From Myxococcota bacterium (lineage in GTDB: Bacteria > Myxococcota_A > UBA9160 > UBA4427), in the NCBI GenBank assembly GCA_965250285.1, contig OZ252299.1, positions 704,001 to 768,000 on the forward strand: DNA of 64,000 bases, given 5' to 3'. The notes below the pieces were generated by a model, which was not told the origin of the DNA, did not search any database, and saw only the letters and a list, made by a program, of their open reading frames with translations. Below, piece by piece: positions 44,422 to 58,400 of the stretch. How positions within the stretch are numbered: position 1 is the stretch's first letter; every line of letters starts with the position of its first letter. Position numbers and translations under genes: made by a program.

Positions 44422-44894
44422 CAACAGGGTTCCCTGGGGCACAAGAGTGTCACATGACGCCGCGCGTTTGGAATAGCCGAATCCGATGTTTGCGTGATGA
44501 ATGAGGCTTGGCGGGTCTGCGTCGAGAGGCCATCGTCGTGCCCGACGTGCGCTCGCCCCCTTTGGGGCGAGCGGGGGCCGGTCCCTCGGGCCGCGCGCGT
44601 TCCCGAACGACATCGAGCCGGTCCGCGCCGTGCGCAACGCCGCTCGTGTGCTCGGATCACGACACGGCGTCGAGCTCGGTGGGTGAGGGGGGGACACCCC
44701 GACCTGTCGCGCAAGGGGCTCGACCTCTCGCGGCGCCCATCGCGCAGTGCAGCCAGAGGCGGTGCTGCTGCAAGGGACCCTGCGCCGCTCGCAGCGCGAT
44801 GGGTCGTCCTGGTCGACTTCGAGGCGCACATCGTTGTGGGCGCGGGGCGTCGGCCCTTCCCCCGCGTGCGCCGAACTCGAGGCATGCGTCCCTG

Positions 44895-45479
44895 TCAGGC
44901 CGCGAAGCTGGCGATCATCTTTCGCAGCGTTGCTTCGGCTTCACTGCGTGCCTCGCGCTTTCGCTTCGCGCGCAAGATCGACAGCGCTGCCTCGGTGAGC
45001 GCCGCATTCAGGATCCGCGCAGCGAGGTCGACCGAGGCGACATCGATCTCGCCGGCCCGGTCCGCGGCTTCGAGCGTGTCGCGGATGCTGCCCAGACCGT
45101 AGGTCTCTTCGATCTCGCGGCACCGCTCCCAACCGAGGGCCGCCGGGCCCTCCACTGCGACGACGCGGGCGACGTCGGGTTTCGAGATCTCGCCGAGCCA
45201 GGCGAGACATGCGGCCTCGAGGTTCGCGAGATGGGAAGCACCGGGTGTGCGTGCGGCGAGTGCGCGCTCGATCGCGCCGGCCGCTTCGGCCTCGTAGACC
45301 GCGGCGAGCAGAGCCTCGCGCGAGGAGAAGTGGTGATACATCGCGCCTCGGCTGACCCCCGCGACCGCGAGGATGTCGCGGGTGGTCGTGTGGGCGCTGC
45401 CGCGCTCGAGAAGGAGCTGACGGCCGGTGTCGATCAGGCGCGCGCGGGTCGCTTCACGGCGTTCGGCTTGCGTAGCCAT
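44895..45479 (-). CDS. TetR/AcrR-family regulator
   Basis: AGVSRGAMYHHFSSREALL HTH, GPAALGWE. Confidence 0.92.
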   Translation of the reverse strand: MATQAERREATRARLIDTGRQLLLERGSAHTTTRDILAVAGVSRGAMYHHFSSREALLAAVYEAEAAGAIERALAARTPGASHLANLEAACLAWLGEISKPDVARVVAVEGPAALGWERCREIEETYGLGSIRDTLEAADRAGEIDVASVDLAARILNAALTEAALSILRAKRKREARSEAEATLRKMIASFAA

Positions 45480-45496
45480 TGCCCGAGCATAGCGCC

Positions 45497-45545
45497 TTTA
45501 CAGACCGTTGGTCGGTTTGTATGATACCGACCAACGGTCTGTAAA
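45497..45545 (+). promoter_or_regulatory. Sigma-70 promoter inside a perfect 20-bp inverted repeat (TetR operator)
   Basis: tttacagaccgttggtcggt-ttgtatgat-accgaccaacggtctgtaaa, containing TTTACA-17 nt-TATGAT. Confidence 0.85.
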
Positions 45546-45575
45546 AGAGCCCAGTGCTCTGAGAGAGGAGATCCC

Positions 45576-45944
45576 ATGCCCGACGTCCCCGCGAGCTTTG
45601 GCCACTACCTGGCCGCCTGGAACGAGATCGATCCCGTGAAGGTGCGCAGCCACCTGGAGGGTCACGTCACCCTCGACGTCGTCTTCGACGACCCGCTCCA
45701 CACCACGCACGGCATCGATGCGCTCGAGGCGATGATCGTCGACGCCCGCAAGACCCGCCCCGGTGGCACGTATCACCGGGTTTCGGGGGTCGATTGTCAC
45801 AATCGCCGCTACCGCTACCTCTGGGAGACGCGGATCGACGGCAAGACCGTCCTGCCCGGAATGGACATCACGCACGTGAACGAGGCCGGCGTCATCACGC
45901 GCATCGATGGCTACTTCGGCGCGTTCCCGCCGCTCGAGGACTGA
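45576..45944 (+). CDS. SnoaL/NTF2-like protein
   Basis: YLAAWNE...FDDP...RYLW...GMD...ITRIDGYFG. RBS gaggag. Confidence 0.85.
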   Translation: MPDVPASFGHYLAAWNEIDPVKVRSHLEGHVTLDVVFDDPLHTTHGIDALEAMIVDARKTRPGGTYHRVSGVDCHNRRYRYLWETRIDGKTVLPGMDITHVNEAGVITRIDGYFGAFPPLED

Positions 45945-46048
45945 CCTGGCGCGGCTGCGTTCCCGCTCGCTCCGACGCAGGGGCGATTCGAAAGCGCCGG
46001 CGACGCCGGTTCGAGCGGGATGTTCCGTCGCGTCGTGACGGATGCGGG

Positions 46049-46651
46049 TCAGCCGAAGAGCCACCAATTCCAGCTGCCGTCGTTGGGGCAGTCGCCGAAG
46101 CCGCACTCGGCGAACGTCGTCAGGAACTCGAGCGTGGCGACGACGAGCAGAGTTGCGACCCCGATCGTCGCCATGCGCTGAATCCCGGCCGTCGGGGGCG
46201 ATGACTCGCGAAACTGAGAGTCGAAGAGCAGCACGATGCCGATCAGAAAGCACGCGACGCCGAAGATCACGACACCCCAGACGTAGAGGTGCAGCCCGAA
46301 GAGCGCCTCGCCGAAGGCTGGATTCGCGGTCGACGACAGCGTCGGCTGGCCCGTGGCCTTGTCGAAGTAAGGGTTGATGTGAAGGAGCGTCTGTCGGAGC
46401 GAGATCAGCAACCCAAAGGTCGCAGACACGAGCGACACGCCGTAGTGGCGGGGCCGCGGGCCCAGCATCAGATTCATGGCGGCCCCGAACGCGACCCCGA
46501 GCATGGCGACGCGCTGAAGCAGGCAGAGCGTGCAGGGCAGCTCCTCGTGCGTGAACTGGTAGCCGTAGGCCCCCAGCAGGATCGCCACGATGCCGAGCAT
46601 CGCGATCAGATTGAGGATGCGGGCAGCGTCGGGGGAGAGGGCCGGGCGCAT
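46049..46651 (-). CDS. dsbB: Disulfide bond formation protein B family (DsbB/DsbI-like)
   Basis: ELPCTLCLLQR, RQTLLHI, FGLHLYVW, C-terminal ECGFGDCP. Confidence 0.85.
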   Translation of the reverse strand: MRPALSPDAARILNLIAMLGIVAILLGAYGYQFTHEELPCTLCLLQRVAMLGVAFGAAMNLMLGPRPRHYGVSLVSATFGLLISLRQTLLHINPYFDKATGQPTLSSTANPAFGEALFGLHLYVWGVVIFGVACFLIGIVLLFDSQFRESSPPTAGIQRMATIGVATLLVVATLEFLTTFAECGFGDCPNDGSWNWWLFG

Positions 46652-46809
46652 CACAGCTGCACGCCGAGGGCGGCGTCGCCGACGTCGAGATAGAAGGCGA
46701 GGGCGCCGAGCACGAGCGTCGCGAGCGCGAGCATCCAGCCCCACTGATCTCGGCGCCAGAGCAGACAGGCCAGGTTGATCGCGAACAGCAGAAAGAGAAG
46801 GGTCACCAT
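46651..46809 (-). CDS. 52-aa membrane protein, DUF5993-like, not in the ORF track
   Basis: MVTLLFLLFAINLACLLWRRDQWGWMLALATLVLGALAFYLDVGDAALGVQL*. Stop overlaps the dsbB ATG (TGATG). Confidence 0.75.
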   Translation of the reverse strand: MVTLLFLLFAINLACLLWRRDQWGWMLALATLVLGALAFYLDVGDAALGVQL

Positions 46810-47058
46810 CGACTGGGCGGAGCTCCGGTTGGAGGGCGAGAAGGCGCACGCGAACGACCCGTTCGCGCCACGACGCGCGGCCGGCGACTGTGAGGCCCGT
46901 GCTCGAACCCGGTTGGCGGCGCATTCGATCGGTGTGGACCGGAAGCGATTCGAGACCGGCTCCGAGAAGCTATGACAGGTCGATCGTCGTTGGGAGCGAC
47001 CTGCCGCCGTGCTCTGGAATCGAAGCGAGTCACCCGGCTACCCCCGGAGCCTGCGCCG

Positions 47059-47478
47059 ATGAGCCGTCGATCGCACGAACGACGCAACGAGAGCAAGCTC
47101 TGTCCGGCCTGCGGTCGCCCCTTCGCCTGGCGGAAGAAGTGGGCCTCGTGCTGGGATCGTGTTCGGTACTGCAGCGATCGCTGTCGTCGCCGGCGCGGCC
47201 ATCCGATCGACCACCACCTCGAGCACGCCATCGTCGAGCGACTGGCGCGTCGGGCCGGCACGCTCTGCCCCTCGGAGGCGGCGCGCCAGGTCGGCGGAGA
47301 CGAATGGCGCGCCTTGATGGAGCCTGCGCGGGCAGCCGCTCGCCGCCTGGCCGCTCGCGACGAGGTCGAGATCCTGCAGAAGGGGCGCCGCGTGGACCCG
47401 GCCCGTGCTCGAGGTCCGATTCGGATCGGACGCGGCCGGAGGTTCGGGCAGGCCGGGCGACACAGCGAATCGCTCTGA
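47059..47478 (+). CDS. DUF2256-DUF3253 fusion protein
   Basis: [16 protein letters not shown]...VRYCSDRCR followed by TLCPSEAAR...ILQKG...RGPIRI. Confidence 0.8.
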
Positions 47479-47884
47479 CGCTGGCTTCGCCTCCGCGCGA
47501 GCCGACCATGGTGTCGACGCACTTCGGCTCTGGCGACGCATCCGCGTCTCGAAACGGCCGAAGTTGTACAAGGGCGAAATCTGTAGCGAGAGCGGCACAC
47601 TCGCGCCCGGCCATCGAGCGCTCGCTCGATCGGTTGAAGTCGCTGGGCCACCCAGCGCTCGTGTCCCTGATCTCGCCGCCGGCACTGTGACCGCGATCGT
47701 CTATGTGGCGAGTGCGTGTCCGTCGGGTGAAACGACGGGGCGAGCGACTCGCGCGCTCTTGTGGCGTCCGCGAAGACGTAGACCGCGATCTCCGCCGGTT
47801 CGGTTCCGCGTGACTCGCTCGCGCTCGGGCCCAAAAACAGCCGCTCGGCTCGCGCGCCCGAGGCGCCCATGCGATCCTGAGCCG

Positions 47885-49162
47885 ATGGACGAAACCGCTC
47901 GATTGACAATGCGCGACCAGAAGATCGACCTTCCGCTCACCGAGGGGAGCGAGGGCGAGATCGGCATCGACATCTCGAAGCTCCGGCCGCAAACGGGCAC
48001 GGTCACGCTCGATCCCTCGTTCGCGAACACTGCAGCATGCGAAAGCGCCATCACGTACATCGATGGCGAGCAGGGGATCCTCCGGTACCGCGGCTACGAC
48101 ATTGCCGAGCTCGCCGAGCACGCGAGCTTCCCCGAGGTGTGCCACCTGCTGATCTACGGGCGTCTGCCGACGCGCGACGAACGCGTCGAGTTTCGCCGCT
48201 TGTTGACGCGCCACACGCTCGTGCACGAAGACATGAAGATCTTCTTCGAGGGCATCCCAGCGTCGGCACATCCGATGGGGATTCTCTCGTCGATGATCGC
48301 TTCCCTGGCTGCCTTCTACCCCGCGGAGGAGACGCCCGAGGTCATCGACCTCAACATCATTCGGCTGCTCGCGAAGGCGAAGACGCTGGCCGCATTCTCG
48401 TACAAGACGGCCATCGGCCAGCCCTTCGTCTACCCGAACAATCAGCGATCGTACATCGAGAACTTCCTCGCGATGATGTTCGCCGTCCCGGCCGAGCACT
48501 ACGAGGTGAATCAGGTCGCTCGACGTGCGCTGAACAGGCTCTTGATCCTCCACGCCGATCACGAGCAGAACTGCAGCACGACCACCGTGCGTACGGTCGG
48601 CAGCAGCGGGGCGAACCTGTTCGCGTCGATCTCGGCGGGCGTGAGTGCGCTCTGGGGACCGCTGCACGGTGGGGCGAACCAACGCGTCATCGAGATGCTC
48701 GAGATGATCCGGGACGATGGCTCGAACTACCAGAAGTACGTCGACATGACGAAGTCGAAGGATTCCGACTTCAGGCTGATGGGTTTCGGGCACCGCGTGT
48801 ACAAGAACTTCGATCCGCGCGCGACGATCTTGAAGCGGACGGCCGACGAAGTGCTCGCGGAGCTGGGCGTCGACGATCCGCTCCTCGACATCGCCAAGCA
48901 GCTCGAAGAAGTCGCCCTGGCCGACGAGTACTTCATCGAGCGAAAGCTCTATCCGAACGTCGATTTCTACAGCGGGGTCATCTACCGCGCGATCGGCATC
49001 CCCACCGACATGTTCACGGTGATGTTCGCGCTCGGGCGCTTGCCGGGCTGGATCGCACACTGGCTCGAACAACGAAACGATCCGACGGTGCGAATCAGCC
49101 GGCCGCGACAGATCTATACCGGCGAGCAGCAGCGAGCCTGGGTGCCCCTCGACGAGCGCTGA
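47885..49162 (+). CDS. gltA: Citrate synthase (type II)
   Basis: ITYIDG, ILHADHEQNCST, LWGPLHGGAN, LMGFGHRVYK, YPNVDFYSG. Confidence 0.97.
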   Translation: MDETARLTMRDQKIDLPLTEGSEGEIGIDISKLRPQTGTVTLDPSFANTAACESAITYIDGEQGILRYRGYDIAELAEHASFPEVCHLLIYGRLPTRDERVEFRRLLTRHTLVHEDMKIFFEGIPASAHPMGILSSMIASLAAFYPAEETPEVIDLNIIRLLAKAKTLAAFSYKTAIGQPFVYPNNQRSYIENFLAMMFAVPAEHYEVNQVARRALNRLLILHADHEQNCSTTTVRTVGSSGANLFASISAGVSALWGPLHGGANQRVIEMLEMIRDDGSNYQKYVDMTKSKDSDFRLMGFGHRVYKNFDPRATILKRTADEVLAELGVDDPLLDIAKQLEEVALADEYFIERKLYPNVDFYSGVIYRAIGIPTDMFTVMFALGRLPGWIAHWLEQRNDPTVRISRPRQIYTGEQQRAWVPLDER

Positions 49163-49213
49163 CGACGAAGCGGGGTTCGGCCCGGTTTCGCGGCGGCCGC
49201 CATCTGGACTCGA

Positions 49214-50080
49214 TCAGGAAACGGTCGACTTCTTCCGGGCTCGCGCGGTGGGCGCGGCCGGTCCTCGCTGGCACTCGGGGCAGTGGAAGACCTTTCGGCC
49301 GCCGAGCACCTGGCGGACGATCTCGGTGCCGCACGTCCAGCAGGGGAGACCTCCGCGCGTGAAGACATGATGGCGATAGGCCGACCGGGTCAGCCCCTCG
49401 GCCTTCAGTTTGCGCACCCGGTCCCGATCGTTCGTGATGCCGCCGGTGCGATAGGCCTGGCGGGTGACGCGCAAGATCGAGTCGGCAAGCTGCTTTGCCT
49501 GAGACGGAGAGAGCTCACCCGCGCGCAGGGTCGGCGGGAGTCCTGCTTCGAAGAGGATCTCGGATCTCAGGTAGTTGCCGAGACCGGCCACGAAGCGCTG
49601 GTCGAGCAGCAAAGCGTGAAGCTGGCGCCGCCCGAAGCGGCGGTCGGTCACCCGGTCGAGGAGGGTCTTCTTCTCGAGATCACGCGAGAGCACGTCGGGC
49701 CCGAGCTTCGACAGAAACGCGTGCTTCTCGACCTGCGCCGGGGTCAGTACCTCGATGTCTGAAGCGCTGAAGAGCAGCGCCGACTTGTCTTCGTTGTGGA
49801 TCTCGAAGCGGAGGCTTCGGTTCGTTCGCGGTGGCTTGTCTCGGGCGACGACGTACCAGCGACCGTAGAGCTGGCTGTGCGTGTACACGCTCAGCTCGTT
49901 CTCGAAGCGGACGAGCATCGCCTTGCCGCGCGTGTCGATGCGAGTGACCCGTTGGCCCGAGAGTCGGCGCTCGAATCGCTTCAGGTGACGAAAGGCGAAC
50001 CGCACATCGGTCGCGACACGGCCAGCGACGGCACGCTCGATCCGGTCGGCAGCGCGTCGGATTTCAGGGCCTTCCGGCAT
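49214..50080 (-). CDS. nei: Endonuclease VIII
   Basis: MPEGPEIRR N-terminus, RGKAML, H2TH GLGNYLRSEILF, Zn finger CWTC...CPECQ. Confidence 0.93.
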   Translation of the reverse strand: MPEGPEIRRAADRIERAVAGRVATDVRFAFRHLKRFERRLSGQRVTRIDTRGKAMLVRFENELSVYTHSQLYGRWYVVARDKPPRTNRSLRFEIHNEDKSALLFSASDIEVLTPAQVEKHAFLSKLGPDVLSRDLEKKTLLDRVTDRRFGRRQLHALLLDQRFVAGLGNYLRSEILFEAGLPPTLRAGELSPSQAKQLADSILRVTRQAYRTGGITNDRDRVRKLKAEGLTRSAYRHHVFTRGGLPCWTCGTEIVRQVLGGRKVFHCPECQRGPAAPTARARKKSTVS

Positions 50081-50409
50081 TTCGATGCACATCCTCGGCT
50101 GAGTTCTGATTGCGGTTGTAGGATGCTGATTCGACCCAACGCGTCTCGAGCGATGTGAATCGCGGGTCGGTGCGCGCGCTCCGATCGCGAGATGCGTCCA
50201 GATCTTCGACCGCCGACCCTCGGTCGCGGTGGCTGGCAACGCACATCCGTGGGAGACCCGCTGGCTCGGCGGGTACGCCGCCGCTCCACGCCCCTGGTTG
50301 TCCAGTGGGATCGGCGCTGCGTATCATGTCCGTCGAGCGCAGGTGGGAACGGCGAGATCGGGGCGAGGACTGACGTCGCGCGGCGTTCGATCGACGTAGG
50401 TGATCGAAG

Positions 50410-51096
50410 ATGAAGTGGTGGTGGCTGGGAGTGGCTCTGTGGTTGACCGCGATGCCGGCGTCGGTCGAGGCACAGGATCACGCCGATTCCGAGGGGCTAC
50501 CGGATTGTGAGGCTCAGTGTCCGCCTCCGACCTACGTGCCCCCGCCGAATCGATATGCGCGTCCCGGCTTCTACGTCGGTCTGTCCGGAGCGATCGGCGG
50601 CGAGGCCTTCGGTGACCTCGTGACCGATACCATCGCGTCGATCGGACTGCCGACGACGGTCGACAGCTCGGCCGGGCTCAATGCTCGCGTGGGATACCGA
50701 TGGAAGAGCTGGCTTGCGATCGAAGCCCAGTATGAGTGGATGTCCCGCTTCCAGTTCAGGCTGGGTCGGATCAACGCCGCTGAGCTCGGGATGCACACGT
50801 GGGTCGTGAGCCCCAAGGTCTTCGTCCCGTACAAGAACATCCAGCCCTACATCCTCTTCGGGATCGGTGGCCAGCTGTCCGTGATCGATGCGCCCCCGCG
50901 GTTCGTCGCCGATCGGACCGATTTCAACTTCGCCATGCGTCCCGGAGTCGGCCTCGACTACTCCATGGCCGAGAACTGGGTGCTCAACGCCGAGTTCGCT
51001 GGCGTGCTGCCCATCGCGGACACGCAAACGGGGCTGGTTCAGGTCGACCAGCTCTTCTACGTCTCGGGCAGCCTCGGCCTGCAGTACCGATTCTGA
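50410..51096 (+). CDS. Outer-membrane beta-barrel protein (OmpA-like TM/porin family)
   Basis: Signal peptide, amphipathic strands, C-terminal LGLQYRF. Confidence 0.85.
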   Translation: MKWWWLGVALWLTAMPASVEAQDHADSEGLPDCEAQCPPPTYVPPPNRYARPGFYVGLSGAIGGEAFGDLVTDTIASIGLPTTVDSSAGLNARVGYRWKSWLAIEAQYEWMSRFQFRLGRINAAELGMHTWVVSPKVFVPYKNIQPYILFGIGGQLSVIDAPPRFVADRTDFNFAMRPGVGLDYSMAENWVLNAEFAGVLPIADTQTGLVQVDQLFYVSGSLGLQYRF

Positions 51097-51382
51097 AGCC
51101 TTTCGGCTCGCTCACGCGGGCGTGATCGATGGGGCGAGGCCCGTCGGCTGCGCCGTGGGTGCGGGTGTCTCAGCCGACACTCGTCGCGCATTTCGACACC
51201 ATGCGTCTCGGAACGTCGGGTGCGCCGGTTCGTTCTGGCTGCGGGGGGAGGCGAGGGCGGCGCACGAGCGACCTGCCGCCGCGGTGCACCTGCTGGCTCT
51301 GCCAGCGTGTCGAGGTACATTGAAGTCGCGACCGCAGTCGAGGGGATGGGTGCTGATGGGCTCCTGGTCTCTGTGAGGTCCC

Positions 51383-52507
51383 ATGATCGATCTCGAATCG
51401 GCCATTCATGCGAACCAGTCGATCGTCCCGCAGATCTACGAAGCGGCGAGCGATCCCCCGCTCTGGAACAAGGTCGTCTTCTCGCTCGCCGAGTTCCTCG
51501 ACTGTGAGATTGGGTTCATCGGGATCTCGTATCTGGCGAGCGGACGCGGCGAGACGCTGGCGTCGGTGGGGCTGCCCGACGACATGCTCGAGCTCTGGCA
51601 GAACGAGCATGCCGTCAACGACTGGGTTGACTTTCTGGCCAAGGTGAAGCCCGGCGAGACGGTGCACGCGAACCGCGACGTGCCGGTCGAGCAGATCGTC
51701 GAGTCTAAGCTGGGCAAGGCCATGATCCAGCCGCTCGGCGTCGTCGATGGCGTGGGTACCAAGCTCACCGATTCGCCCCTCTTCATCGGGCACATCAGCA
51801 CGTATTCCACCACGGGCCTGCTCGGGCAGCGCGAAGTCGACCGAGTCGACTTCCTGGCGCCTCACCTCGCACGCTCGCTGGCGCTCCACCAACGGTTCTC
51901 GATTCTCGAAGGGCAGTCGCGTTCCTATGAGCAGGCGATCGATCAGCTGCCCGTGGGTGTCGTTGTCCTGCACGTCTCGGGCGACGTCATGCATGCGAAC
52001 GAAGCCGCGCACGGCATCATCGGCGAGTCGGACGGCGTGCGGCTGATCGATGGGCGGATCGTCTTGGACGACCGCGAGGCGCAGGCGGCGCTCGTCGCCG
52101 CGCTGAGCGCGACGAAGCAGCCCGACCCCGGCAGCGGGCCGGGGGCGCTGTTTTCGGCGCAGCGGCCGTCGGGTCGCCGCGCACTGCACCTGGTCGTTTC
52201 TCCGCCGCTCGAGCGCGTGCCGGCCGCGGCCGAGGCGGGGGTCGTCCTCTGGATCGTCGCGCCCGACGAGATCCGGCCACCCGATCCCGATCGCCTGGCC
52301 ACGCTGCTCGGTCTCACGCCGGCCGAGGCCCGAGCCGCCGCCGCCATCGCGGCGGGTCGCACCGTCAAGGAGTACGCAGCGCAGTCCGGCGTATCTGAGG
52401 GCACGGCGCGCTGGACCCTGAAGCAGGTGCTCAACAAGACGGGCATGCGATCGCAGGCCGATCTCGTTCGGCTGGTGGTCGGGAGCGTTCCGAGTCCGCC
52501 CTTTTAA
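51383..52507 (+). CDS. GAF/PAS-containing LuxR-type HTH regulator
   Basis: LAPHLARSL, PAS-like QLPVGVVVL...HANEAA, GLTPAEAR...KTGMRSQADLVRL. Confidence 0.85.
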   Translation: MIDLESAIHANQSIVPQIYEAASDPPLWNKVVFSLAEFLDCEIGFIGISYLASGRGETLASVGLPDDMLELWQNEHAVNDWVDFLAKVKPGETVHANRDVPVEQIVESKLGKAMIQPLGVVDGVGTKLTDSPLFIGHISTYSTTGLLGQREVDRVDFLAPHLARSLALHQRFSILEGQSRSYEQAIDQLPVGVVVLHVSGDVMHANEAAHGIIGESDGVRLIDGRIVLDDREAQAALVAALSATKQPDPGSGPGALFSAQRPSGRRALHLVVSPPLERVPAAAEAGVVLWIVAPDEIRPPDPDRLATLLGLTPAEARAAAAIAAGRTVKEYAAQSGVSEGTARWTLKQVLNKTGMRSQADLVRLVVGSVPSPPF

Positions 52508-52672
52508 ACGCGCGCGAAGCGTTGGGAGGCCGATGACGCCCCGCGCCGCAAAGCGGAGCCCGCGACTCGACGATGTCGCCTCGCATCGCCCTGGCGTGCG
52601 GTCCGGCGGGTGTCCGAGGGTGGCCCTTCTTTGCGCGGCACGTGAGGGGCCCCGGCACGCGAGCTCGACGTC

Positions 52673-54616
52673 ATGAAGCTGCATGCGCTCGATGTCTTGA
52701 TCATCGGCGCGTTCGTCGCGTGGGCCGTCGCGAACGGGCTGCGGGCACGTCGGCGCGCGTCGTCCGATCTGGAGCAGTACTTCCTGGCCGGGCGGAGCCT
52801 GTCCGGCTGGCAGGCCGGGCTCAGCATGGCGGCGACGCAATTCGCCGCCGATACCCCGCTGCTCGTGACGGGTCTCGTTGCGACGGCCGGCATCTTCGCG
52901 CTCTGGCAGATGTGGGTCTACGCCCTGGCGTTCCTGCTGATGGGCTTCGTGCTCGCCCCGAGCTGGCGACGGGCCGGCGTGCTGACCGACGCCGAGCTGA
53001 CCGAGCTGCGCTATGCGAGTCGCGCCGCGCCCATCCTTCGCGCCGTCAAGGCGGTCTACTTCGGCACCGTCTTCAACTGTGTCGTGCTGGCGTGGGTTCT
53101 CTTCGCGACGCGCACGATCGCCGAGCCCTTTCTGGTCTGGCATGCATGGCTGCCGAGCGGGCTGTTCGAGCCCGTGCTCGGGCTCGTTCAGCTCGTCGGC
53201 GTTCCGCTGGCGACCGACCCGGCCGGGCCCGACGTCTGGATCCATACGGCCGACAACCTGCTGTCCGTCACCGGGATCGTGACCGTGACGCTCTTCTATT
53301 CGGCCACGGGGGGGTTGCGGAGTGTCGTCTCGACCGATCTCGTTCAGCTCGCGATCGCGCTCGGGGGGACGGCGATCTACGCCGGCTGCGTCGTCGCCCA
53401 CTTCGGCGGCATGGAGGCGCTGATCGACGCCCTGCGAACGCGCTTCGCGGCCGGTGGCCCCGGCGGCATCTCGCCGGATCAGATCCTCGCCTTCACGCCC
53501 TCGCAGGCGCGCGACGCTTCGTGGGCGGTGCTCGCCGTCTTCAGTCTGCAGTGGTTCATCCAGCTGAACGCCGACGGCACGGGATATCTCGCGCAGCGCT
53601 CGATGGCCTGCCGCAGCGATCACGACGCGCGGCTCGCGGGCGTCGTGTTCAGCTTCGCGCAGATCGTGCTCCGAAGTCTGCTCTGGCTGCCCATCGCGCT
53701 CGGCCTGCTCGTGCTCTTTCCGCCCGATGGGACGCTCGCCCCCGAGCTCGTGAGAGCGGATCGCGAGGCGACGTTCGTGCGCGGGATGGCCGAGCTGCTG
53801 CCGGTGGGCGTTCGTGGACTGATGCTCGCGGCGATGCTCGGTGCCCTCGCCTCGACGATCGACACGCATCTCAACTGGGGGGCGTCGTACTGGACCCGCG
53901 ATCTCTACGAACGCTTCTATTGCCGATCGTTGCGTGGCATCGAGCCCGATCCGCGCGCGCTCGTCTGGGTCGCCCGGCTCTCCAGCGTCGGTCTCCTCGC
54001 CGTCGCGCTCGGGGTCATGACGCAGCTCACCTCGATCGAGCGCACCTGGCGAGTGGCGCTGCTGCTCGGGGCGGGCATGGGGCCGATGCTCGTGCTGCGC
54101 TGGCTCTGGTGGCGCGTCAGTGCGTGGGGCGAGCTCGCGTGCATCGGCGTGTCGGCAGGGGTTGCCTTGCCGTTGATCGCTGCACCCTTGGGCGAGGCCG
54201 TTCGACTGCTCGCGATGGCCGCACTTTCAACGGCGGCGGGCGTCGCCGTCTCGCTCGCGACGCCCGAATCACGCGATGCGCTGCGTGGCTTCTACGAGCG
54301 GGCGCGGCCACCGGGCTTCTGGGGAGAGATCGCGATCGCGGCCGGCGACGACCCGCACGAGCCGCGACGGCGTCTTTCGCGGGGCGTCGCCGCGGTCTTG
54401 GCGACGGCCCTGGTCTGCTTTGCGCTCCTCACGGGTCTCGGTTCGTGGCTCGTCATGGCTCCGCCCCCCGAAGCCTGGCCATGGGGGCGCACCAGCTGGG
54501 TCGTGGCGCTGCTCGCAACCGCGGGCCTATGCGCACCCTTCGCGTGGCGCTGGGGCTTCACGGTCGACGGCGAGGCCGAGACCGATCGGGCCGGCGTCTC
54601 GAGGGCAGGCGGCTGA
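52673..54616 (+). CDS. Sodium:solute symporter family protein
   Basis: YFLAGRSL, SMAATQFAADTPL, GGLRSVVSTD, ASTIDTHLNWGASY. Confidence 0.92.
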   Translation: MKLHALDVLIIGAFVAWAVANGLRARRRASSDLEQYFLAGRSLSGWQAGLSMAATQFAADTPLLVTGLVATAGIFALWQMWVYALAFLLMGFVLAPSWRRAGVLTDAELTELRYASRAAPILRAVKAVYFGTVFNCVVLAWVLFATRTIAEPFLVWHAWLPSGLFEPVLGLVQLVGVPLATDPAGPDVWIHTADNLLSVTGIVTVTLFYSATGGLRSVVSTDLVQLAIALGGTAIYAGCVVAHFGGMEALIDALRTRFAAGGPGGISPDQILAFTPSQARDASWAVLAVFSLQWFIQLNADGTGYLAQRSMACRSDHDARLAGVVFSFAQIVLRSLLWLPIALGLLVLFPPDGTLAPELVRADREATFVRGMAELLPVGVRGLMLAAMLGALASTIDTHLNWGASYWTRDLYERFYCRSLRGIEPDPRALVWVARLSSVGLLAVALGVMTQLTSIERTWRVALLLGAGMGPMLVLRWLWWRVSAWGELACIGVSAGVALPLIAAPLGEAVRLLAMAALSTAAGVAVSLATPESRDALRGFYERARPPGFWGEIAIAAGDDPHEPRRRLSRGVAAVLATALVCFALLTGLGSWLVMAPPPEAWPWGRTSWVVALLATAGLCAPFAWRWGFTVDGEAETDRAGVSRAGG

Positions 54617-54878
54617 GCTGACCGGTCAGACGTTGGTCACGCGACCGCGGTCGAGGCCCGCGGATGTGTTCGACGAGGCCCAACGGCGCCTCTTTCCAGT
54701 CAGGTCTCGCGCCGAGTTCGTGTGCGCCTTCGAAAGCGGAGGTGCGCGCGTCTCGGTCGACAGCGAGGTCGCGGTCACGGTTCGGCTTCGGAGCGTGCCC
54801 GACACGACGGTGGCCATGCCCCTCCAGGTGCTTCGAGACGCTTCTGCGGTATCTTGTCGCCGAACACGGAGGGGTTTC

Positions 54879-55181
54879 ATGATTCGTCGATTCCGACTCG
54901 TGCTGGGCACCCTGGCGATGCTGATCATGGTGGCTTCGGCCGCGTGGGCCGAGCCCGTCACCTACGTTCTCGAGACACCCGGCGTCGTCTGAGGCGGCAC
55001 CTCTCAGAGGGCCCGTGCGGCCGTCGAACAGCTCGATCACGTCTCCGCCGTCAGCACCGACATGAACGCCCACACGGTGACCGTCACCTTCGATGACGAT
55101 CAGACCGATGTCAGCGCGATCGTCGCGGCGCTGAACGACGCAGGGTACGTCGTCAAGAAGCAGCAGAAGCAGATCGAATAG
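54879..55181 (+). CDS. Secreted HMA/MerP-like protein with in-frame TGA at 54990-54992 (putative selenocysteine)
   Basis: RBS ggagg. Read-through gives MIRRFRLVLGTLAMLIMVASAAWAEPVTYVLETPGVV(U)GGTSQRARAAVEQLDHVSAVSTDMNAHTVTVTFDDDQTDVSAIVAALNDAGYVVKKQQKQIE*, an HMA pattern on both sides of the TGA. Confidence 0.8.
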
Positions 55182-55459
55182 GGCTCGGATCTTCGTCGAG
55201 TGCAGCGACGAGCCGCGCGACACGTGTGCCCTGCGCGCGGTCGCGGATCGCGTGAGGGTCGCTCGATGCGGATGCGACGGCGATTGCTTCGCGTCGTTTC
55301 ATAGTCAACGAGTGCGTCCCTTTTTCGACAACGAGAGGTGTCACCGCGAGCCGCTCCGGGCCCGGCGCCACGGCCGTGCGGCCCGCCGACCCGCGCGCTG
55401 ATCACAGAACGAGGATCGATCGGTCGGTTTCGGCAGGCAACGTGTTAGCTTAGGCGCGT

Positions 55460-58400
55460 ATGAGCACCGCATGTCCGTCCTGCGGCCAGGAGAATGCCGA
55501 CGACGCCCGAGTGTGCACCGGTTGCGGGGCAACGCTCGGTGTCCCGTGCCGTCAGTGCGGGGCGATCATGTCGCCGACCGCCAAGTTCTGCTCCGAGTGC
55601 GGCGCGGCTGCGCAGCCCGTGGTCGAAGAGGGTGAGCGCCGACACCTGACGGTGCTCTTCGCCGATCTCGCCGGCTCGACTTCGATCGCCGAACGCCTCG
55701 ATCCCGAAGATTGGCGCGACACGGTCGTGCGCTTCCAGCAGGAGGCGGTGCGGGTCATCGAGCAGGCCGGAGGCTACGTCGCGCAGTATCTCGGCGACGG
55801 GCTTCTCGTCTACTTCGGATACCCCCGCGCAAGTGAGAACGACGCCGAGCGTGCGGTGCGCTGCGGCCTCGAACTCGTCGAAGCGACGCGGGCCCTGAAT
55901 CCCGAGCTGCAGTCGGCCCACGACGTCCAGCTCAGCCTGCGCGTCGGTGTGCATTCGGGGCCGGTCGTCGTGAGTGAGGTCGGCGGCACCCGGCGCGAGA
56001 CGCTGGCGCTCGGCAAGACGGCGAACCTGGCGGCGCGCGTGCAGTCTGCCGCGAAGCCGAACACCGCGTACGTGACGCAGGCGACGCTTCGTCGGATCGC
56101 CCCGATCTTCGTGACGCACGATGTGGGCGAGTTCGAGCTGAAGGGCATCGAGCGCCCGGTTCGCCTCCACGAAGTGCTGCATCCGAGTGAGTCGCGCGGA
56201 CGATTCGCGGCGCCTGGTCACGCGCTCACGCCCTTCGTCGGGCGCCAGCGTGAGCTCGACGAGCTCGAAGATCGCTTTGCGCGTGCGCATGCAGGGCAGG
56301 GCCAGCTACTGACGATTCGAGGCGAGGCCGGGATCGGCAAGTCTCGACTCGCGCATGCGTTCGAGCGATCGCTTCCGGTGGACGCGCACGCCTGGCACGA
56401 GTGCCAGGGTGCTGCGTACAACCGCGACAGCCCGCTGCAGCCGTGGCTGCATCTGCAACGCGATCTACTCGGCATCGGCGCGGCCTCGACCGATGAAGCC
56501 AAGGTCGCCGCCCTCGAGACCGCGCTGGGCGAAGCCGGGCTCGATCTCGACGAGGCCGTTCCGCTCTTCGCTGCGGCACACGGTCTTGCGCTGCCTGATC
56601 GCTACACGCTGCCCGATGTGAGCCCACTCGGCTTGCGCAAGCGCACCCTCGCGCTCATGGCCGACTGGCTGATTCGGCTCGGGCGCGATCAGACCGTCGT
56701 GCTGCTCGTGGAGGACTTGCACTGGTTGGATCCGTCCTCGGTCGAGCTGATCGGGCAACTCACCGATCGCATCGGCGAAGCGCGTCTCCTCGTCCTGCTC
56801 ACACAGCGTCCGGAGTTCGAGCCGCCGTGGCAGGAGGGCCCCTCGGTCTCGAGCATCGCGCTCGAACGTCTGTCGACGAACGAGCTGCACGAGCTGATCG
56901 CTCACGCATCCGACGAGTCGCCGCTCGGGGACGATTGGGTCGAGGCCATCCACAATCGCTCGGACGGCGTGCCGCTCTTCGCCGAGGAGCTGGCCCGGGC
57001 GGCCGCGCAGAGCACTGACGCGTCGGGTGGCGCAGCCTCGGCGCAGAGCGTGCCCGAGACCCTGGAAGACCTCTTGATGTCGCGCCTCGAGCGGATGGAC
57101 GACGTGAAGACGGTGGCCCAGCTCGCATCGGTGCTCGGTCGCGAGTTTCCGATCGGGCTGCTCGAGCCCCTCTGGCGGGGTGAGCGTGCAACGCTGCGCT
57201 CCGGCCTGGAGGCGGCCGAGCGCGCGCGCATTCTCACGCGCGTCGAGGGGGCGCACGAAGACCGCTATGCGTTTCACCACGCGCTCATTCGAGACGCGGC
57301 CTACGGCTCGATGTTGCGGCGCACCCGGCGACGGCACCATCAGGCCGTGGCGACGGCGCTGCGCGAGCACTTCCCCGACCGGGTCGCCGAACAGCCCGAG
57401 CTGCTCGCGCACCACCTGACCGAAGCCCAGGCGATCGATGCCGCGATCGAAGCCTGGCGCGAGGCCGGTGCGCTCGCGCTCGGTGGGGCGGCCTACGAAG
57501 AAGCCATTCGCCATCTTCGGCGCGCGCGCACGCTGCTGCACGATCACCCCGACGATGTGCGCAACCTCGACGTGGTGCAAATGCTCGCGGGCGTCCTGCT
57601 CGCGGAGCGCGGCTGGGCGCACGAAGAGACACACGAAGCCTGGGAGGCCGCGGCCGCGCTCTGCGATGCAGACAAGGAGCCGCTGCGGGCAGGCGCGATC
57701 GCCTGCGGGCTCGGTGATGCGTACTCGTCGCAGGATCTCGGCAAATCGCTCGACCACTTCGTCGCGCTGGCCGATCGCGGTCGCACGCGGGAGCTGCCCT
57801 TGCTCACGATCGCGGGCCATCAAGGGGCCGCGATTCCGCTCCGCTACCTCGGTCGCTACGCAGAGGCGCGCGGACACCTCGACCGCGGGCTGGCGACCTA
57901 CGACGTCGATCGGCATCGCTTCGTCGATGCCGGGTTTCATGAGGAGAAGGGCATCAGCCTGCTGCTCTGGTCGGCGTGGGTGCACTGGGATGTCGGCGAC
58001 CTCGATCGCGCACGTGAGGACGCTCGACGCGCGGGCGAGCTCGCGGATGCGCTCGACAGCCCCTTCGCGCGCGCCTTTGCCGATTCGTGGGGCTCGGGTG
58101 TCGAGGTCTTCTCGGGCAATTGGCCGCAAGCGCTCGAACTGGGCGCGCGTGCTGCGAAGCTCGCTGCCGATCACGGGTTCCTGCTGCTCGAGGCCATGGG
58201 GCGCTTCGCTGAGCTTGCATCGCGCGGCGTGCTCGAGGATCTGAACGAGGCGCCCGACCTCTATCGCATCGAAATCGGCCGACTCGCGGCCACAGGCAAC
58301 CAGCTCGGTGGCGCCGAGGTCTTCGCAATTCTGGCGCGACTCGAGCTCGAGATGGGGCTGAACGACCAGGCTCTTGCCACTGTCGATGTCGGGCTCGGTC

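Follow-up and report, generated by a model that had tools for sequence, protein, structure and literature searches.

A conserved in-frame UGA in a Myxococcota gene for a predicted exported HMA-fold selenoprotein

The window analysed here, a stretch of 64,000 nucleotides, holds a small gene located 262 nt after a sodium:solute symporter gene and 278 nt before a gene encoding an adenylate cyclase/AAA protein (Table 1). A preliminary description of this DNA had proposed that it encodes a hidden selenoprotein, citing a good ribosome-binding site, a signal peptide with an AWA/EP cleavage pattern, a TGA at codon 38 and 62 further codons up to the TAG. All of these are seen in the sequence, the signal peptide by inspection, and the readthrough product comprises 100 residues without any Cys. 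Most orthologs also carry GGAG-like sites upstream of their start. The signal-peptide pattern is clear across the family, by inspection only, with Ala24 invariant in 16 out of 16 orthologs, and the structure model returns this region as a low-confidence helix. A promoter and terminator scan at the gene found nothing, as expected.

Table 1. Position of the selenoprotein gene, its parts and its neighbours in the window.
Feature	Position	Strand	Remarks
Sodium:solute symporter family gene	52673-54616	+	Pfam SSF, 114.7 bits; no subfamily model reaches its cut-off
Shine-Dalgarno-like GGAGG	54868-54872	+	6 nt 5' of ATG; from sequence
HMA/MerP-fold selenoprotein gene	54879-55181	+	100 codons plus TAG (55179-55181)
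Predicted Sec-pathway signal peptide	54879-54950	+	basic start, hydrophobic core, A-W-A site, without lipobox Cys
In-frame TGA, predicted Sec38	54990-54992	+	codon 38; from alignment with MerP
Thr41, replacing second Cys of CxxC	54999-55001	+	from alignment with MerP
Conserved SECIS-like hairpin	55007-55025	+	stem GAGGGCC/GGCCGUC, one G.G mismatch; RNAalifold consensus, pair counts
Met62, candidate second metal ligand	55062-55064	+	from alignment with MerP
His65, family-specific, candidate ligand or catalytic base	55071-55073	+	residue counts, Sec group versus CxxC domains
Double zinc ribbon, adenylate/guanylate cyclase and AAA ATPase fusion	55460-58723	+	1087 residues; Pfam

Analysis of the readthrough protein reports a hit with the Pfam HMA domain (PF00403; 47.1 bits for a cut-off of 24.8), which bears out the HMA-like pattern noticed earlier, and the structure model and Foldseek agree on this fold. 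In the alignment with MerP, the selenocysteine (Sec) at position 38 and Thr41 face Cys14 and Cys17, while Met62 and Tyr90 face Phe38 and Tyr66. The TGA thus falls at the first Cys of the metal loop and Thr at the second, as had been proposed. The two-Cys MxCxxC clamp of HMA domains is absent, the motif being VxUxxT/S. Both the HMA fold and the export of the protein are predictions.

The TGA column is strongly conserved. A protein search across the class (225 genomes) matched 42 genomes, 39 of them with one TGA. Checked at the DNA level for 39 of these 42 matches, with one locus per genome, the column is TGA in 36, Cys in two (one TGT, one TGC) and Glu in one (GAA), and the downstream half is intact, with none of the decay that the preliminary description had associated with a nonsense pseudogene. 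A search of 61 genomes returned 17 matches, one being merely a generic HMA match and the 16 others being strong, each with one TGA at the identical column. In a sample of the phylum, 13 out of 401 genomes matched, 12 with TGA forms, all in the same order, and one with an ordinary CxxC protein. The orthologs with TGA show roughly 37-66% identity and intact frames, and TAA or TAG never occupies the column. A DNA-pattern scan of metagenomes yielded at least 120 loci and at least 102 distinct C-terminal sequences, among which a few tails look cut or frameshifted and three (L075, L098, L118) contain Cys. More than 100 distinct metagenome copies, among the matches listed, all read U-x-x-T/S. Among the 120 loci listed, the third position after Sec holds Thr 95 times and Ser 25 times, with a pattern that also permitted Cys or TGA there; it is Thr in 27/36 and Ser in 9/36 genome loci. 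The three pattern matches in viral contigs are all unrelated. A search of longer proteins for fused forms reported three generic P-type ATPases and no fusion, which is weak evidence.

The preliminary description had also suggested looking for the TGA in reads. It is unchanged in the contigs from all three runs of one study, possibly the source of this DNA, and in one RNA-library contig from a second study. The RNA-library run X4 gave two 151-nt contigs of depth 2 over positions 54874-55173 and no other in 44500-64000. Since this run was found via the gene itself and the contigs give neither level nor strand, they are not evidence of transcription.

The Sec machinery that the preliminary description had proposed to look for is present in the host genome (6.25 Mb, 95% complete): selA, selB and selD score over their cut-offs, and the tRNA-Sec (selC) has the anticodon TCA. 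Among the 61 genomes, selA occurs in 54; among the 15 relatives carrying the gene it occurs in 14, the fifteenth (G008, 87% complete) having selB and tRNA-Sec. The host SelD (L010; G000:C1:5312234-5313154, minus strand) displays an active-site motif with Cys, not Sec, and belongs to a frame of 781 residues whose N-terminal extension is long. The genome holds 18 or more additional Sec candidates, their TGAs being located on G000:C1 at 2490359+, 3873825+, 4424435+, 2320738-, 2346508-, 1311786-, 3754820-, 3186092-, 3573817+, 5740006+, 121328+, 3706377+, 3939510+, 3020228-, 2261940-, 1068662+, 305916+ and 4930965-. Judging from their motifs, we take them to be peroxiredoxin-, AhpD-, GrdB-, UGSC-, SelW-, UXX-star- and deiodinase-like. 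The frame of the candidate at 3754820 continues into a short-chain-dehydrogenase-like domain. Because the first genome-wide TGA screen missed the HMA selenoprotein gene itself, this list is not the full selenoproteome.

The SECIS is not where it had first been placed. The fold suggested in the preliminary description (lower stem ggcggc/gccgtc, upper stem cctc-tca-gagg) can form in this sequence taken by itself. Its upper helix is paired in 64% of cells over 16 orthologs, shuffling attains its covariation score 114 times in 500, and its UCA loop, 11 nt after the UGA, fails the bacterial SECIS model as given in the accessible text of PMC13188914; this candidate was rejected. The conserved hairpin is a different one, 17-35 nt further on. 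The same text describes a loop of 3-9 nt with a G as its first or second nucleotide, a stem of at least 4 bp, a distance of 16-37 nt from the UGA and an energy of -7.5 kcal/mol or lower. The hairpin at 55007-55025 agrees with this model, with its 5-nt loop CGUGC (55014-55018; G second, then U) located 21 nt after the UGA and an energy of -9.2 kcal/mol; taken by itself, the 19-nt piece folds less stably than -7.5 kcal/mol in 11 of the 36 orthologs.

The support for this hairpin is its conservation, not its energy. Its folding is not unusual for G+C-rich DNA (z of -0.21 to +1.23 in one test and -1.7 in another), some hairpin follows 20656 of the 126676 host TGAs (16%) under loose criteria, and single-sequence folding energy was discarded as a SECIS criterion since it does not discriminate. 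In the alignment, 87.5% of cells are paired and the outer pair exhibits four two-sided changes, a score that 0 of 500 shuffles reach, in a test inflated by sequence relatedness and with a structure picked from the same alignment. The outer pair, which the scan pattern leaves free, is paired in 84 of 94 distinct metagenome copies among the matches listed, for 70.9 expected. The codons GCC-CGT lie under the hairpin in every one of the 36 genome loci that the protein search retrieved; CGT accounts for ~9% of Arg codons in the host, and other four-fold or synonymous sites vary. Arg46, invariant and always CGT in the Sec forms, is mostly replaced in the Cys forms, a case of a SECIS constraining the protein sequence. 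The hairpin is lacking in two divergent relatives without TGA. Three CxxU candidates of the host, which we take to be AhpD-like, possess the identical CGUG(C/A) loop 24 nt from their UGA.

These observations bear on whether the TGA might instead be a true stop (in a pseudogene, or ending a 37-residue peptide that an independent fragment follows), a sequencing error, or a Trp codon under another code. The ordinary stability of the hairpin, the frequency of chance hairpins after host TGAs and the presence of W or R at the site in some database entries would fit such a reading, which the rest of the evidence makes very improbable. The frames are intact around a column that holds TGA in nearly all genome loci and no other stop codon; most orthologs themselves terminate in TGA, so TGA is a stop in these genomes; the hairpin codons are fixed amid varying synonymous sites and the hairpin is lost in divergent relatives without TGA; and three runs agree on the codon. 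The in-frame UGA pairs with Cys in L033, in relatives with GVVCGGT and in MerP (Cys14), and it is retained in different organisms, where coding sequence flanks it on either side. The selenoprotein gene is thus almost certainly real, with Sec inserted at the conserved UGA.

Gene callers truncate the family, as had been anticipated. Public databases hold 38-residue N-terminal pieces annotated "hypothetical" (e.g. HIG69913.1) and 53-56-residue C-terminal pieces labelled "copper chaperone CopZ" (e.g. MFK7894471.1), other entries having W or R at the Sec site; family fragments there are also labelled Myxococcota. A Cys ortholog, L033, contains TGT at the column (57% identity) and still possesses the hairpin; its genome, labelled Myxococcota, contains selB. 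As the metagenome locus L089 is near-identical to it but has TGA, the TGT of L033 reflects either a recent change or a mistake in the sequence. A scan of a genome collection with a pattern that required Cys, which gives no range for the Sec forms, returned L033 and two chance matches.

A wider group comprises exported single-Cys HMA proteins with CxxS/T (P0011, P0015, P0019, P0038, P0080, P0085, P0086, P0109 and others). They resemble the Sec family by their signal peptide, GVxCxxS/T loop, Asp61 and, mostly, His65, but have Cys for Sec and mostly lack Met62 and Arg46. One of them checked at the DNA level, L197, has no hairpin, and none of those scanned scores over any NCBIfam cut-off. An atlas query with P0011 reports HMA clusters at 0.87-0.88, which are leads only. 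In a tree of 71 columns, poorly resolved and without a root test (P0131 skipped, P0124 mis-anchored), the CxxC proteins group in a separate clade (95/91), and several Cys forms are interleaved among Sec forms with weak resolution. Four exported relatives (P0081, P0083, P0157 and L198:2120-2395, minus strand) keep the fold signature without either Cys/Sec of the metal loop.

The surroundings of the gene are not conserved. Neither the symporter nor the cyclase/AAA gene is conserved next to the orthologs, the 1.5-kb flanks of 19 loci have no common neighbour except within close kin, and clustering the flanks of 139 loci reveals no family-wide neighbour and no conserved operon. Out of 104 ORFs called within 2.5 kb at 21 loci, 81 flanking ORFs belong to assorted metabolic Pfam families, with no metal-related neighbour. 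The host genome has no MerT or MerA over cut-off and one other HMA match over cut-off, within an 857-residue frame. In one metagenome clade (L057, L102, L112, L122, L126 and kin; L081 with the downstream gene only), the gene lies between a multiheme cytochrome c, presumably similar to ammonia-forming nitrite reductase, and an aldo/keto reductase that bears a twin-arginine-like signal and has a cluster of Cys at its C-terminus. One genome has a SAM methyltransferase (L204:4126-4932) 85 nt from the selenoprotein gene, which we assume to resemble arsenite methyltransferases.

Profiles of NCBIfam release 20 place the protein close to several known systems and inside none of them. MerP (TIGR02052; PDB 1osd, 1afi), also made of a signal peptide and one HMA domain of ~72 residues, is the best profile and structure match, with 58 bits for a cut-off of 92.55; however, MerP has GMTCxxC, whereas the selenoprotein has PGVxUxxT/S, no Cys and no mer operon. 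A search of the open literature revealed no paper on Cys mutants of MerP. The metal-binding (seleno)protein NF041115 is likewise HMA-type, Sec occupying the first ligand position, but carries two Sec (UxxU) instead of one (UxxT), and the selenoprotein reaches 29 bits for its cut-off of 95. The MerT/CopZ fusion-like selenoprotein NF045683 and the cation-transporting E1-E2 ATPase selenoprotein (UxxC) also contain an HMA domain but are membrane transporters; the match with NF045683 (32.5 bits, cut-off 375) covers the HMA part only and the MerT membrane domain is absent. CopZ/Atx1 (NF033795; PDB 2qif) has the same fold (39 bits, cut-off 91), but CopZ is cytoplasmic, with MxCxxC, and often beside copA according to the available text of PMC7558416, whereas the selenoprotein is predicted to be exported, with one chalcogen and no Cys. 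With the GPx-like UxxT selenoproteins, of thioredoxin fold, it has the motif spacing alone in common. We infer that the selenoprotein works like a periplasmic HMA metal carrier without being a member of MerP, CopZ, NF041115 or NF045683.

With the conserved UGA very likely read as Sec via the hairpin at 55007-55025, the product would be an exported HMA-fold protein with a single selenolate at the first-Cys position of the MxCxxC loop. This selenolate, likely helped by the nearby Met62 and His65, would capture a soft metal, most likely Cu(I), and the protein may serve as a stand-alone periplasmic buffer or chaperone. Sec would remain ionised and withstand over-oxidation, unlike a lone Cys in the periplasm. 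Thr or Ser at the third position after Sec makes the usual two-thiolate clamp impossible, and the second soft donor would hence have to come from Met62/His65 in the β2-β3 hairpin or from a second monomer. Met62 is found in 106 of 110 sequences of the Sec group, the top three residues at this position in 211 CxxC domains being Leu, Phe and Val; His65 is found in 105 of 110, as well as in 12 of 14 close single-Cys relatives, and is outside the top three residues in the same 211 domains. These counts leave aside six loci as well as every short or duplicate sequence, and both residues lie outside the metagenome search pattern. We presume that Phe38 of MerP, the counterpart of Met62, adjoins the metal loop. 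Precedents exist in CusF, a periplasmic chaperone for Cu that uses His/Met donors, and in CopZ, which dimerises on Cu(I) (both in the accessible part of PMC7558416), and the HMA-type selenoproteins already in the catalogue bear metal-binding or metal-transport annotations (Table 1 of PMC13188914). A periplasmic soft-metal trap built on Sec and the family-specific Met62/His65 is the reading that we prefer, with a probability of about 0.5; the preliminary description had proposed either binding of Hg, Cu or Ag or a redox function.

Several observations weigh against metal capture. None of the 14 close Cys relatives has Met62. Since Met62 takes the place of a hydrophobic residue and the Met of MxCxxC has become Val, it may be no more than a packing swap. 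The clamp has lost its second Cys, some relatives have lost the Cys/Sec entirely, and the gene has neither metal-related neighbours nor MerT or MerA over cut-off in the host. According to Table 1 of PMC13188914, UxxT/S motifs usually signal redox chemistry, as in the GPx-like, OsmC-like and arsenate-reductase selenoproteins. The protein could accordingly be a periplasmic redox catalyst in which Sec38, aided by His65 and by the hydroxyl of Thr/Ser, reduces peroxides, sulfenic acids or mixed disulfides, with the HMA domain as a scaffold. The hydroxyl residue, present in every one of the metagenome and genome copies counted above and kept in most single-Cys relatives, would suit such an enzyme, as would the lack of metal genes nearby and a host with many Sec candidates that are presumably peroxiredoxin- and AhpD-like. 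Yet the fold is HMA and not thioredoxin-like, a resolving Cys and a conserved reductase partner are both missing, and Thr/Ser is the simplest isosteric swap for the Cys capping helix 1, which leaves the redox reading less likely than metal capture, though it is the main rival. Still less probable is a carrier or store of selenium or sulfur, or a redox/metal sensor signalling to an unlinked membrane partner. A small exported protein with one chalcogen and no operon, in a host rich in Sec candidates, could fill such a role, but one Se per 76 residues makes a poor store, Cys forms exist, and no partner gene is conserved.

Returning to the soft-metal trap, we tentatively suggest that the family may exhibit a new HMA site in which selenolate, Met and His replace the CxxC clamp, either as a Se/His/Met periplasmic trap or as an HMA domain turned selenol redox enzyme. 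Should the new metal site hold true, natural Sec and Cys versions would allow a direct comparison; L089 (Sec) and L033 (Cys), two orthologs nearly identical to each other, and the wider single-Cys sister group are at hand. The ~76-residue domain, with one Sec and no Cys, would be among the simplest natural tests of Sec in a metal-binding, not catalytic, site.

HMA-fold selenoproteins are an already known kind, and their stand-alone UxxT/S form is uncatalogued in the literature covered. The 119 families of Table 1 of PMC13188914 include NF041115 (UxxU, as "putative mercuric reductase"), the E1-E2 ATPase (UxxC) as well as a C/SxxU mercuric transport protein; a stand-alone UxxT/S protein of HMA type is not among them. 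The accessible parts of the Haft and Gwadz preprint, deep-Sep and BSepDB (Table S1) contain no description of the family. With this gene comes a further selenoprotein family that is conserved, missing from the catalogue and systematically mis-annotated. Trp stands at the HMA Cys position in two proteins of the databases, P0192 (VPGCVWPGT) and the two-domain P0097 (GMTWGGSC), which look, from their sequences, like other HMA selenoproteins with the TGA misread as Trp; P0097 passes NF041115.
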